Shown here piece after piece: positions 14,074 through 58,930 of a stretch of DNA of 64,000 nucleotides. The notes beneath the pieces were generated by a model that was given only the letters and a program-made list of their open reading frames with translations, ran no database searches and was not told the origin of the DNA. The DNA is taken from the NCBI GenBank assembly GCA_965214835.1, contig CBDCCK010000002.1, positions 2,144,001 through 2,208,000 on the forward strand. Direction: 5' to 3'. Numbering within the stretch: the first letter of the stretch is position 1; each line of letters opens with the position of its first letter. The translations under genes and the position numbers were made by a program. Origin of the DNA: Nitrosopumilaceae archaeon (GTDB lineage: Archaea > Thermoproteota > Nitrososphaeria > Nitrososphaerales > Nitrosopumilaceae).

Positions 14074-15123
14074 ATGCAGGACGGAGTGACAGCATTGTCA
14101 AACGCAGAGCCAGAGGTGGGATTGAAGTTGTGGGGGGGGGGTACGGCTCTGGCATGCAATAGCGGCAGGGTGTCGCTTCTAATCCGGGTCTACAACGGGG
14201 AAAAGTACCTGGTGCCGTGCATAGAGTCCGCGCTTGCACAGACGTACGGCAACATCGAGGTCATAGCCGTAAACGACGGCTCCACGGACGGGTCAGCCGA
14301 GATACTGGGGCGGTACTCTGACAGGATCAGGATAGTCGACACAGAGCACGCGGGACGCTCGGCTGCCTACAACGCGGGGATCGCCCACATGACCGGGGAG
14401 TGGCTTGCAGTCCTGGACTATGACGACGTAATGTATCCTGACGCCGTAGAGAGGCTCGTCGGGGCCGCCGAGGGGCTTGACTCGTCATCGGCTACCAGGG
14501 TAATACCGTTCTTTGATCTGCAGATGCTGGGATCCGACGGAAGGCCAAACGGCAGGACGCAGTCGTACCACATGGACAACTCCATGGACGCGCTGGAGCA
14601 GGGCGCCTCGATGTTCATCATGTACTTTGGACAGATGTATGTCTCCATACTTCACAGATCGATTCTTGAGGACGTCGGGGGATTTGACGAGAGCCTTGGC
14701 CGAGGCGAGGACATAGAGTTCGGCATGCGGCTGACCGTAAACCACGGGTACAGGTTCCACCACGTTCCGGGCATCATATACGGGTACAGGCAGCACGGCG
14801 GGCAGGGCAGGCTGGGCTCAAGGGAGAGGAACGCCATGAGGCGCAGGATCCTGGAGCTGACCGTAGACAGGCTGGACGGGCCGGACAGGAGGAGATACGC
14901 CGAGGCCAGCAGGAGGATCGGACGCAGGTTCGTCGTCACATCTGCGTGCCGTCGCGCCGATCACACTCTGAGCTCGTTTGCGTACGGCGCCCATGAGGGT
15001 ACGGCGGCACGGCTTGCGGCCAGAGCGCTCGGGGCCCTGCTTGAATGCGGGCCCGCGCGCCGTCTCGCGGGCCTGCTGACGTACCGCCTGAGAACCGCAA
15101 GGATTAGGCCGCGGGAGGGCTGA
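14074..15123 (+). CDS. Family-2 glycosyltransferase (start uncertain; G10 tract near 5' end)
   Basis: YNGEKYL..CIESALAQTY, VNDGSTDGS, LDYDD, GGFDESL..GED. Confidence 0.88.
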   Translation: MQDGVTALSNAEPEVGLKLWGGGTALACNSGRVSLLIRVYNGEKYLVPCIESALAQTYGNIEVIAVNDGSTDGSAEILGRYSDRIRIVDTEHAGRSAAYNAGIAHMTGEWLAVLDYDDVMYPDAVERLVGAAEGLDSSSATRVIPFFDLQMLGSDGRPNGRTQSYHMDNSMDALEQGASMFIMYFGQMYVSILHRSILEDVGGFDESLGRGEDIEFGMRLTVNHGYRFHHVPGIIYGYRQHGGQGRLGSRERNAMRRRILELTVDRLDGPDRRRYAEASRRIGRRFVVTSACRRADHTLSSFAYGAHEGTAARLAARALGALLECGPARRLAGLLTYRLRTARIRPREG

Positions 15124-15219
15124 GCCTGCCCACTACGGCCTGATGCTTCTGATCCAGTAATGTGACTTGCAGTCAAAGCTGAGCGGGAGGGCTGAGCCTG
15201 CCCACTACGGCCTGATGCT
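15111..15219. repeat. 37-bp perfect direct repeat flanking a 35-nt insert
   Basis: GCGGGAGGGCTGAGCCTGCCCACTACGGCCTGATGCT at 15111-15147 and 15183-15219. Confidence 0.95.
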
Positions 15220-29377: not shown

Positions 29378-29977
29378 TTGAGCGATCCAAGAAAATCTAA
29401 AGATGCTGAGGATATTTTAGCAGAATTTACTAGCAATAAGGAACCTCCGCCAGAACCAACTATGGAACCAGAACCTCCGCCAGAACCAACTATGGAACCA
29501 GAACCTGCGCCAGAACCAACTATAGAACCAGAGCCTGCACTGGAGCCAACTGCAGAACCAACAGAGCCAACTGCAGAACCAACAGAGCCAACTGCAGAAC
29601 CAACAGAGCCAACTGCAGAACCAACAGAGCCAACTGCAGAACCAACAGAGCCAACTGCAGAACCTGAACCAGCACCAGAAAGTCCTGATAACTCGGGAGC
29701 CAATCTTGAACGTAATGTTATCTTTGTTGGAACAAAACCCATCATGACATATGTGACTGCAACACTAACACAGCTGGCCTCGCAGAATGTAGTGACCATC
29801 AAGGCCAGGGGAAAAAGGATCACACAGGCAGTTGATGTATCGCAAATGATTGTAAAGCGCATGGATACTGTAGGATACGTCGTGTCCAAAGTCAGAATAG
29901 CATCTGACTCTTTGACCTCTCAGGATGGAAGAGAAAGAAACGTCTCCACCATTGAAATTGACATTACAAAAGCGTAA
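29378..29977 (+). CDS. albA: Alba chromatin protein with long Pro/Glu/Thr repeat N-terminus
   Basis: IFVGTKPIMTYV, IKARGKRITQAVDV, RNVSTIEI. Confidence 0.9.
   Translation: MSDPRKSKDAEDILAEFTSNKEPPPEPTMEPEPPPEPTMEPEPAPEPTIEPEPALEPTAEPTEPTAEPTEPTAEPTEPTAEPTEPTAEPTEPTAEPEPAPESPDNSGANLERNVIFVGTKPIMTYVTATLTQLASQNVVTIKARGKRITQAVDVSQMIVKRMDTVGYVVSKVRIASDSLTSQDGRERNVSTIEIDITKA
29441..29664 (+). repeat. Coding tandem repeats: 30 bp x3, then 21 bp x5 plus a partial unit
   Basis: GAACCTCCGCCAGAACCAACTATGGAACCA (third unit imperfect) and GAGCCAACTGCAGAACCAACA. Confidence 0.95.
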
Positions 29978-57239: not shown

Positions 57240-57538
57240 GCGGTGTGCGGATCTGCATGCAGTTTAACCTAAATTGTGTCAGATTTGGAACCGTTTTACG
57301 GGGAACCTTTGGGAAGGCTGGACAGGCAGCTACATATTCATGTCTGATGGCATCCACAAGGTAACGGTTAAGACATTCAGAGATTTCTATAATCCAAAAA
57401 GTAGTTCACCCCTTCTCCGAGGGTGTAAAGTCGGTAAGGATCAGATGCACGGGCCTCATGCATGCCACTGGAAACAAGGGTGTGTGGGTCTGGCGCAAAA
57501 GGGCTGGTAAATACGTCAGTCTTGCACGCCCCAACAAC

Positions 57539-58577
57539 ATGAATCTAAACAAGTCAGGCGTACAGTGGATAGTACGCCAAAAGCAAAAGGGAGACATGAC
57601 AAACGCCCAGATAGCCGAATCCATGAACGTCTCGGTCCGCTGGGTACAGAAACTGTGGGCCCGGCACAGGTCAGGCACCGTACAGGACATATCGCACCCC
57701 GCACGGATGGGAAGGCCCCAGAACGGCATGCCCGGGCGCAGGGAGCACTCGGCGGTCCTCTCGGTGCGACCTGGCGGATTCTGGACGTGGCTCAACGAGG
57801 CCGTCCTGGCGCAGGGAGCACTCGGCGGTCCTCTCGGTGCGACCCTCCGAGCACCTAGGCGCGGCATCACTGCAGGATCTCATAAGGGAAAAGACCGGGA
57901 TTAATATCCCGCGACATACACTGCACGGCATGCTAAAGGACGAGGGGATGGCCAGAGACGAGCCCAACGGGCGCAGAAAACGCAGGTGGCTGCGCTGGGA
58001 GATGGAGTATTCCAACTCCATGTGGCACACCGATTGGAAGCAGATACACGGCGGAATGCACGACGGCAGGTGGTTTTTGTGCTACGAGGACGACGCATCC
58101 CGGTTCGTGACCGGATACGGCATATTTGACAACGCGACTACAGAAAACGCCCTCAAGGTGCTTGACGGGGCCATGCAGAAGCACGGCAGGCCCGCCTCCA
58201 TAATGACGGACCACGGAAGCCAGTTCTATGCAAACGAAAAACAGGGTGCAAAGAGGGGGCACAGCGAGTTCGAGGAGAGCCTGGAGGCCCTAGGCATACG
58301 GCAGGTCCTTGCCGGGGTGCGCCACCCGCAGACAAACGGCAAGGTCGAGAGGCTGCACGGCGAGATACAGCGCAAGCTGCACGAGTTTGAGGATATCATG
58401 ATGAGAACAAGCGATCCCATGGATCTGTTCATGAAATGGTACAACTACGACAGGCCCCACATGTCCCTTGACCGGGAGAACCGGGAGACGCCGGCGCAGG
58501 CATATGAGCGCAAGATGCCTCCTGCGGGCGAAACGGTCATAGATGGGCAGACCAGGGAGGAATATCATGTCAGATAG
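57539..58577 (+). pseudogene. IS481 transposase frameshifted by a 73-bp duplication/insertion
   Basis: HTH N-terminus, WHTDWK, DDASR, TDHGSQF, PQTNGKVER, YNYDRPH. Confidence 0.88.
57735..57844. repeat. 37-bp perfect direct repeat flanking a 36-nt insert
   Basis: GGCGCAGGGAGCACTCGGCGGTCCTCTCGGTGCGACC at 57735-57771 and 57808-57844. Confidence 0.95.
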
Positions 58578-58930
58578 GGGGGGGGGGTGAACTACTTTTC
58601 GGATCCCACAAGACATTCAGAGATTGCAAAAGGAATTATACTATCGATAATCGTACAATCAGGATTGGGCGGGGAGATCTCTGTGAGATGATGCCTTTGT
58701 GGTCGTAAGGGCGGTATTTGGGAAGAACGGGCTGCTGATCAGCCCCCATTACTAGTCTATGCATCCATGAGAAAATACCGCATAGGGGCCGGATATACAG
58801 TGGGCATCTTTGCAGGCAACGGCAGAAAGTTCGGGAGCGTTTATGCGTCACACGACATAATGACTGGACAGGAGTTTGACTCTGCACTAGAGGATGCAAG
58901 GCACGTCTCGAGGCTTGTCTGTTGGAACCT

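Follow-up and report, generated by a model that had tools for sequence, protein, structure and literature searches.

A split transposase gene and the unit within it

The DNA analysed here is a stretch of 64,000 nucleotides (nt), termed the window, from the genome of a Nitrosopumilaceae archaeon (assembly GCA_965214835.1, contig CBDCCK010000002.1, positions 2,144,001 to 2,208,000). The genome is 3.2 Mb in size and is designated G000, with contigs C1 and C2. The window contains a copy of an insertion sequence (IS) whose transposase gene is divided into two open reading frames (ORFs) by 73 additional base pairs. These base pairs are part of a small unit that consists of two identical repeats and a short insert between them. 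The unit is referred to as site 2; site 1 is another unit of this type in the window. Coordinates are listed in Table 1.

At site 2 a 37-mer is perfectly duplicated around a 36-nt insert, as a preliminary description of this DNA had reported, and the start-to-start spacing of the two copies is 73. The match can be extended to 40 nt at 98% identity (positions 57732–57771 vs 57805–57844).

A BLAST search of the whole genome with the IS sequence shows five other full-length copies of 1119–1126 bp, i.e. six full-length copies in all, plus fragments. Alignment shows that the 37-mer is single and the 73 bp are absent in all five. Site 2 therefore represents an insertion with a target duplication. 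The longest open frames of the five copies are 329–368 codons in length, and one intact copy (in stretch L015) has a single ORF of 348 amino acids that reads ...GRREHSAVLSVRPSEHLGAA... across the site-2 position. The preliminary description had postulated a single frame in the absence of the 73 bp and had predicted that other copies of the IS would lack them; both expectations are borne out. With the 73 bp added, the reading frame is shifted and the transposase is in two pieces, which has very probably inactivated this copy of the IS. A second, partial copy of the IS also carries a unit, at another position.

The best NCBIfam match of the intact transposase is the IS481 family (NF033577), with 178.2 bits against a curated cut-off of 224. 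Traits of the IS481 type are present: terminal inverted repeats, multiple genomic copies and a DDE core (rve, rve_3). Because the score is below the curated cut-off, the element is termed IS481-like. The earlier label “IS481” thus corresponds to a best hit that does not reach the family threshold.

The insert of site 2 has no second match in the genome (blastn-short, E-value up to 0.01). The derivation of the insert from adjacent sequence, which had been raised as an objection to an insertion from outside, is therefore not observed. Exact matches are also absent from viral contigs, metagenome contigs and genome contigs; phage records give only a chance-level 19-nt match, and 150 other genomes of the order give none with three or fewer mismatches.

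Site 1 was described previously as a comparable duplication, and this holds. The repeats are identical, the spacing is 72, and the unit is positioned at the 3′ end of an ORF for a family-2 glycosyltransferase. A paralogue at G000:C2:~1060300 has the repeat homologue once and is divergent after it. No source of the site-1 insert was found in the genome. Sites 1 and 2 are the only repeat pairs of this kind among the five families of direct repeats spaced within 150 bp in the window; the other three are tandem coding repeats or are imperfect and are not such units.

The layout of site 2 is that of a repeat-spacer-repeat, as in CRISPR arrays. The “repeats” however are transposase sequence, with 18 of 51 in-register identities to the leader and repeat of the host CRISPR array described below, and only two copies are present. 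Site 2 thus has neither the consensus repeats, nor the series of three or more, nor the adjoining leader of a canonical array.

Table 1. Coordinates of the IS copy and of the repeat units (window positions, except for the last two rows)
Feature	Position	Strand	Remarks
IS element	57397..58599	+	1203 bp including the unit; perfect 16-bp terminal inverted repeats at 57397-57412 and 58584-58599
Transposase, N-terminal fragment	57458..57904	+	out of frame past the 73-bp insertion; no Pfam domain found
Site 2, target copy 1	57735..57771	.	37 nt identical, true duplication probably 36 bp; single-copy in other IS copies
Site 2, spacer-like insert	57772..57807	.	36-mer, or 37 nt with a 36-bp duplication; no second genomic copy; 64% G+C
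Site 2, target copy 2	57808..57844	.	identical to copy 1
Transposase, C-terminal fragment	57837..58577	+	DDE integrase core (rve, rve_3)
Site 1, second such unit	15111..15219	.	37-nt repeats 15111-15147 = 15183-15219; 35-nt insert 15148-15182
Unit in relative G003	L063 position 5305 (G003:C4:5305)		
Unit in relative G003	L064 position 5372 (G003:C4:25372)		

Logan contigs of four public runs (X1, X2, X7, X8) were compared with the locus. Those of X2 and X7 contain an empty-form joint (57734 to 57808, skipping 73 letters, with 37 letters that fit either side), which is uninformative on polymorphism at site 2, as the other IS copies predict the same form. A 16-nt direct repeat flanks the IS at 57370–57385 and 58610–58625, 11 nt beyond the left end and 10 nt beyond the right end. 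In the X2 and X7 contigs position 57369 is also linked to 58650 through 40 other letters, a sign that the locus may be arranged differently in other samples. Elsewhere in the window (29441–29685) is a tandem array of 21- and 30-nt units (nine copies in a 59-nt register), presumably repetitive coding sequence.

The host CRISPR-Cas system and the units in the rest of the genome

A large CRISPR array is found at G000:C2:2482178-2492954. It has 148 identical 36-nt repeats with a period of 72–76, and spacer lengths of 35 nt (7 spacers), 36 nt (45), 37 nt (54), 38 nt (18), 39 nt (16) and 40 nt (4). A small degenerate array is present at G000:C2:135893-136367. Directly upstream of the large array are a Cas4-Cas1 fusion of 566 amino acids, then Cas2 and the leader; downstream are Cas3, Cas8g2, Cas7g/Csb1 and Csb2. 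The fusion matches Cas4g/Cas1g (NF049935) with 754.8 bits against a cut-off of 560 and covers model positions 2–546 of 546; the Cas2 match has an E-value of 3e-16. NF049935, TIGR02570 and TIGR02165 are above their cut-offs and Cas8g2 (TIGR04106; 100.8 bits) is below its cut-off of 125. The helicase and HD domains of Cas3 were identified by Pfam. On the basis of these family matches the host system is assigned to type I-G (formerly I-U). The fusion gene is the single Cas1 locus in the genome. The genome also encodes Orc1/Cdc6, the PolD small subunit and ribosomal proteins S4e and L19e, by which the organism is recognised as an archaeon.

The CRISPR-cas locus (G000:C2:2470878-2482400; L001 4878-16400) comes directly after a cluster of ribosomal protein genes (L3, L4, S3, L14, L24, S4e, L5, S8, L6) and a tRNA-like gene, and it may be an island inserted beside the tRNA gene. 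The L19e gene is far from this cluster, at G000:C2:320 kb. Over-expression of cas4/1 by read-through from the upstream ribosomal-protein cluster was considered and dropped; a small ORF and the tRNA-like gene lie between.

A scan for perfect direct repeats outside of the arrays (length 20–46, period 68–80) gave 70 candidate pairs. Restriction to a length of 31–40 and a period of 69–76, without pairs flagged as tandem, left 43 rows. Two of these were removed, i.e. 1966990, a segmental duplicate of 1921439, and 1736693, which belongs to a repeated-element family and whose “source” has the same flanks. This leaves 41 distinct solitary units. Their repeat lengths are 36 (15 units), 37 (11), 38 (3), 39 (2) and 31–35 (10), and their periods, from the inferred spacer lengths, are 72 (16), 73 (9), 75 (6), 74 (3), 69 (3), 71 (2) and 76 (2).

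The spacing of these units is specific. Perfect pairs of 31–40 bp number 45 at spacings of 69–76 and 0–11 in other bins of the same width of 8, with two exceptional bins (34 and 10 pairs) that represent tandem-repeat families of period 156 and 165. This concentration at spacings 69–76 is not accounted for by chance. A mismatch-tolerant scan gives 9, 4, 2 and 2 windows with 36 of 36 matches at periods 72, 73, 74 and 75, and 0–1 at other periods between 40 and 120; the smaller set with 33–35 of 36 matches likewise peaks at 72 and 75.

Repeat lengths of 36 and more (15, 11, 3 and 2 units) agree with a duplication of 36 bp plus chance extension, for which 17.4, 8.7, 3.3 and 1.6 are expected (chi-square p = 0.78). 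Site 2 is for this reason most likely a 36-bp duplication with a 37-nt spacer and not a 37-mer with a 36-nt insert. The duplication reported previously is thus real, with a length that is probably one base pair shorter than stated. A ruler mechanism had been proposed from the equal duplication lengths at sites 1 and 2. This proposal gains from the host array: the duplication is as long as the CRISPR repeat (36 nt), and the length of the insert falls within the range of the host spacers (35–40 nt).

An uninterrupted, empty-site paralogue is present elsewhere in the genome for 13 of the 41 units (14 if all 43 rows are counted), and nine targets have three or more. This provides direct evidence of insertion at those sites as well. 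None of the 41 units has more than one spacer; a single multi-copy case of comparable size was flagged, and it is a collagen-like coding repeat.

Periods divisible by 3 are found in 25 of the 41 units vs 42% in the array (p = 0.012). Selection for in-frame units is not invoked to explain this, as the excess of multiples of 3 is also seen outside of long ORFs (11 of 15).

The 73 bp at site 2 are in all likelihood the footprint of an off-target spacer integration, that is, at a site other than a CRISPR site, by the host type I-G Cas4/Cas1 fusion together with Cas2. The adaptation complex would carry a processed prespacer of about 36–37 nt. Two staggered strand-transfer attacks would occur 36 bp apart in the transposase gene of the IS, the spacing that is normally measured across the CRISPR repeat, and gap repair would then duplicate the 36-bp target on either side of the spacer. 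The outcome would be a solitary repeat-spacer-repeat unit in which the “repeat” is transposase sequence, with about 40 sister events in the genome. Insertion, duplication, empty sites, the agreement with host repeat and spacer lengths, the sister events, and the PAM and chromosomal origin of some of their spacers are observed; that Cas4/1-Cas2 is the catalyst, and in which order the two attacks took place, is what we infer. In the Escherichia coli work of Nivala, Shipman and Church in 2018 the duplicated target reportedly had the length of the native repeat.

Several repeats resemble the units and were left out of the catalogue. A repeated-element family at G000:C2:1308256, 1624026, 2343414 and 2692095 (also 608098, 1995606, 2707231 and 1736693) has an internal direct repeat of 25–42 bp with a period of 72–79 and a conserved insert of ~37–47 nt; it might go back to an old unit, mobilised afterwards, or be something unrelated. 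A 42-bp repeat family of period 79 (four copies), related to that of 1736693, falls outside of the catalogue by the length filter. The region G000:C2:34441-35722 was considered as a multi-unit neo-array with a spacing of 72–73 and rejected: it contains 13 perfect copies of a 22-nt palindrome at irregular spacings of 72–253, followed by 84-bp tandem repeats. This region resembles an array of protein-binding sites and is not CRISPR-related.

Origin of the inserts and choice of targets

A chromosomal source elsewhere in the genome (at least 30 nt, at least 90% identity) was found for 10 of the 41 inserts, and two more have weaker or partial matches. Six of the nine full-length sources display TTN directly at the 5′ side in one orientation (chance 0.11 per site, binomial p = 1e-4); two of the remaining three have TTN at a 1-nt offset and one is without it. 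A TTN protospacer adjacent motif (PAM) and spacers of about 36 nt are expected of type I-G, and the spacer mode of 36–37 nt, together with TTN at the sources of these ectopic spacers, is in accordance with this.

These sources bear on the possibility that the units are local duplications with filler DNA, formed by replication slippage, template switching or as an assembly artefact. Slippage can yield perfect short direct repeats, and the public runs were compared at the level of contigs. Several inserts however originate from loci that are hundreds of kilobases away and are flanked by TTN there, the site-2 insert has no copy in adjacent sequence or in any other part of the genome, and the 41 events share one repeat length and a period of 69–76, with almost none at other spacings. 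Local duplication is thus considered extremely improbable.

The inserts are mutually all different, without a conserved cargo or conserved terminal sequence. This is relevant to a second alternative, in which a mobile element or integrase unrelated to Cas inserts a cargo of ~36 nt and duplicates 36 bp of the target, and the agreement with the CRISPR geometry is a coincidence. In its favor, the targets are not CRISPR repeats and have only a weak likeness to the leader-repeat junction, and casposases, relatives of Cas1, also make target duplications. Target-site duplication by transposons and casposons results from staggered strand transfer followed by gap repair. Unlike their insertions, the units display a 36-bp duplication and a different cargo of 33–40 nt at each site, with no terminal repeats and no transposase-coding cargo. 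Furthermore, 10 of the 41 inserts are copies of host chromosome, duplication and insert lengths coincide with the repeat and spacer lengths of the host, TTN is beside 6 of 9 sources, and the one Cas1-family gene found in the genome is within the I-G locus. An integrase of another type is therefore very improbable, if slightly less so than local duplication.

While 10 of the 41 inserts have a chromosomal source, none of the 147 array spacers matches the chromosome (Fisher p = 9e-8). Plausibly, autoimmunity removes self-derived spacers from the array, whereas in units that are not processed they do no harm. The tolerance of self-derived inserts in the units, in contrast to the array, suggests that the units are not used for interference. 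The mean G+C content of inserts without a known source is 52%, vs 48% for array spacers (p = 0.02).

In a third alternative site 2 would yield a guide RNA, either as a functional mini-CRISPR array or as a solitary repeat unit that a mobile element carried in. The repeat-spacer-repeat layout fits this, and mini-arrays occur on mobile elements. The “repeat” however is the coding sequence of the IS itself and is single in all five other copies. It is unlike the host repeat, the expected substrate of the I-G processing protein, none of the 41 units has grown past one spacer, and the self-derived inserts argue against a use in interference. A functional mini-array is as improbable as local duplication, and off-target integration of a spacer remains the preferred explanation of site 2.

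A single 4.2-kb stretch, G000:C2:902180-906409 (L013 9180-13409), is the source of three of the ten self-derived spacers, and all three match the same strand. This stretch is beside the orc1/cdc6 gene (L013 7127-8338) and the PolD small subunit gene (L013 8335-9768), likely a replication-origin region. Naive sampling of spacers may have a hot spot here.

Among the array spacers, number 41 alone has a match in the genome; it matches a giant gene for a family-2 glycosyltransferase on the 13-kb contig C1 (L014 6365-6401). There is a mismatch at position 1 of the spacer, and TT is present at −2/−1 immediately upstream. The match could represent an escape variant or tolerated self-targeting.

The target sequences show a weak base preference. 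G or C is found at position −2 in 68 of 82 half-sites and at +1 in 66 of 82 (both junctions of the 41 units), with T depleted. The repeat starts with G in seven of eight units that can be oriented by their PAM (p = 5e-4). The preliminary description had pointed to a G-rich start of both repeats; what emerges instead is that G or C is weakly preferred at −2 and +1 of either junction. The excess of similarity between the targets and the leader and repeat of the array is located at repeat positions 30–32 and leader positions −2/−1.

Several observations weigh against the assignment of site 2 and its sister sites to Cas4/1-Cas2. Neither a source nor, consequently, a PAM was found for the site-2 insert, which is tied to Cas4/1-Cas2 by its geometry and by the sister sites. 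The inferred insert lengths differ from the spacer lengths of the array: three inserts of 33 nt have no array counterpart, 36 nt is commoner and 37 nt is rarer (chi-square p = 0.02). The likeness of the targets to the leader-repeat junction, a comparison that the preliminary description had proposed, is significant and only weak, i.e. 16.6 identities of 51 to the repeat and the 15 nt of leader that precede it, vs 14.6 in random genomic DNA (p = 5e-5). The canonical repeat begins with A, whereas the ectopic targets favor G or C at +1. The polarity derived from this similarity agrees with the PAM polarity in three of six comparable sites, with one tie; no recognition motif is claimed for this reason. 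Lastly, upstream of the cas4/1 gene of a related genome (G004), which has the same kind of system and a near-identical 36-nt repeat, 396 kb are free of units.

Affected genes, known systems and related genomes

The units are not evenly distributed in the genome. Ten of the 41 are found within 150 kb upstream of the array (G000:C2:2332658-2466942), where 1.9 are expected (binomial p = 1.5e-5; the permutation p for any 150-kb window is 0.003), and one unit is within 150 kb downstream. This clustering near the cas locus could result from a short distance to the place of synthesis or action of the integrase, or from the tolerance of a dispensable region for insertions.

After removal of the unit, a stop-free frame of at least 150 codons crosses the site in 26 of the 41 units. 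Twelve of these keep an equally long frame with the unit in place and 14 are broken. Pfam searches with 20 of the 26 ORFs show transposases (DDE_Tnp_1, two Transposase_20 and rve), a family-2 glycosyltransferase, a sulfotransferase, an NAD-dependent epimerase, a DNA methylase, an HtrA-like protease, a PMT-like membrane protein, a TPR protein, CobA/BtuR, GlmS and an ORF that contains ribosomal protein L13; 5 of the 20 display no Pfam family. At least six units are in transposase genes or IS copies, including site 2 and the second, partial copy of its IS. The view that ectopic spacer acquisition acts as a mutagen, and the prediction of further sites, had been based on sites 1 and 2; the catalogue of 41 distinct units in the genome agrees with both.

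Off-target integration by the type I-E system of E. coli has been termed “neo-CRISPR” (Nivala, Shipman and Church, Nat Microbiol 2018, as described by citing papers 10.1101/148544, PMC6698737, PMC7054753 and PMC9456107). According to these descriptions the events were rare and were seen with overproduced Cas1-Cas2 (PMC7054753), IHF-like motifs favored the off-target sites (PMC9456107), and for natural occurrence in two other species there was only “circumstantial evidence” (10.1101/148544). The units in G000 are similar to neo-CRISPR as described there, in that a spacer outside of any array leaves a repeat-spacer-repeat unit. They differ in being natural and fixed in the genome, with about 41 events, an archaeal type I-G Cas4/1 fusion and self-derived spacers flanked by TTN. 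No motif of a strength comparable to the IHF-like motifs in those accounts was found here.

Canonical adaptation by type I-U/I-G modules, as reported for Geobacter sulfurreducens (PMC6547450) and Methanosarcina barkeri (PMC10504553), shares with G000 the Cas4-Cas1 fusion plus Cas2, a TTN PAM, spacers of mostly 36 bp and a repeat ending in AGC. For the Geobacter Cas4/1 module (type I-U, now I-G) a TTN PAM and predominant 36-bp spacers are given, and about 30% of the unique new spacers came from the host chromosome in a heterologous assay, compared with 10 of 41 inserts here (PMC6547450). Canonical integration takes place at the leader-repeat junction of the array, whereas the units are in ordinary genomic DNA without a leader. 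“Ectopic” acquisition in Streptococcus thermophilus, as outlined in PMC7999890 and the review PMC8047081, is comparable in that integration occurs away from the leader-proximal repeat. It differs in the use of a genuine repeat within the array; the duplicated sequence here is not a CRISPR repeat.

A full-text search of a limited literature library yielded no account of such units in large number in a natural genome, nor of their formation by type I-G. The proposed mechanism is of a known kind (that of E. coli); the natural scale, the type of system and the unselected record of spacers set this case apart.

A broader proposal, for and against which the arguments seem evenly balanced, is that in this lineage type I-G Cas4/1-Cas2 is a genome-wide mutagen, with at least 41 fixed units that break or lengthen genes and IS elements. 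In the same proposal the units, being unused for interference, would form an unselected record of naive adaptation: about a quarter self-derived, with a TTN PAM, three sources in 4 kb beside orc1/cdc6, and integration concentrated near the cas locus.

If this is correct, the units give a natural measure of the mutational cost of CRISPR adaptation and of the rate of self-sampling, both otherwise masked by selection. With off-target integration as such, the spacer sample would be unfiltered by autoimmunity (10 of 41 self-derived vs 0 of 147 in the array), and a fitness cost of adaptive immunity would be visible in the frames broken at 14 of the 26 units in long open frames. IS copies can be inactivated as a by-product of adaptation. 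The units would also constitute in vivo evidence that the Cas4/1-Cas2 ruler spans 36 bp without a genuine repeat, and a catalogue of target sites from which recognition by the integrase beyond leader and repeat may be deduced. For annotation, solitary 36-bp direct repeats about 36 bp apart should be considered as CRISPR footprints and not as random duplications.

Among 21 genomes searched, Cas4g/Cas1g is above the cut-off in three: G000 and the relatives G003 and G004. The two relatives were sampled in part (278 kb of G003 and the above-mentioned 396 kb of G004). The I-G repeat of G003 is near-identical as well, and this genome displays two solitary units (37 and 39 bp, period 72; Table 1) on the 78-kb contig that bears its cas locus, and no unit in 200 kb of its contig C1. 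With units in G003 and none in the stretch of G004, the phenomenon is not unique to G000, yet the system alone is not sufficient for it, as far as these parts of both genomes show.

The sampled stretches of these genomes, which are of the same genus, differ widely in G+C content: 37.6% in G004 (L043-L062) and 63–65% in G003 (L063-L076), vs 52.6% in G000. The near-identity of the CRISPR repeats despite this gap hints at a horizontal spread of the type I-G locus.

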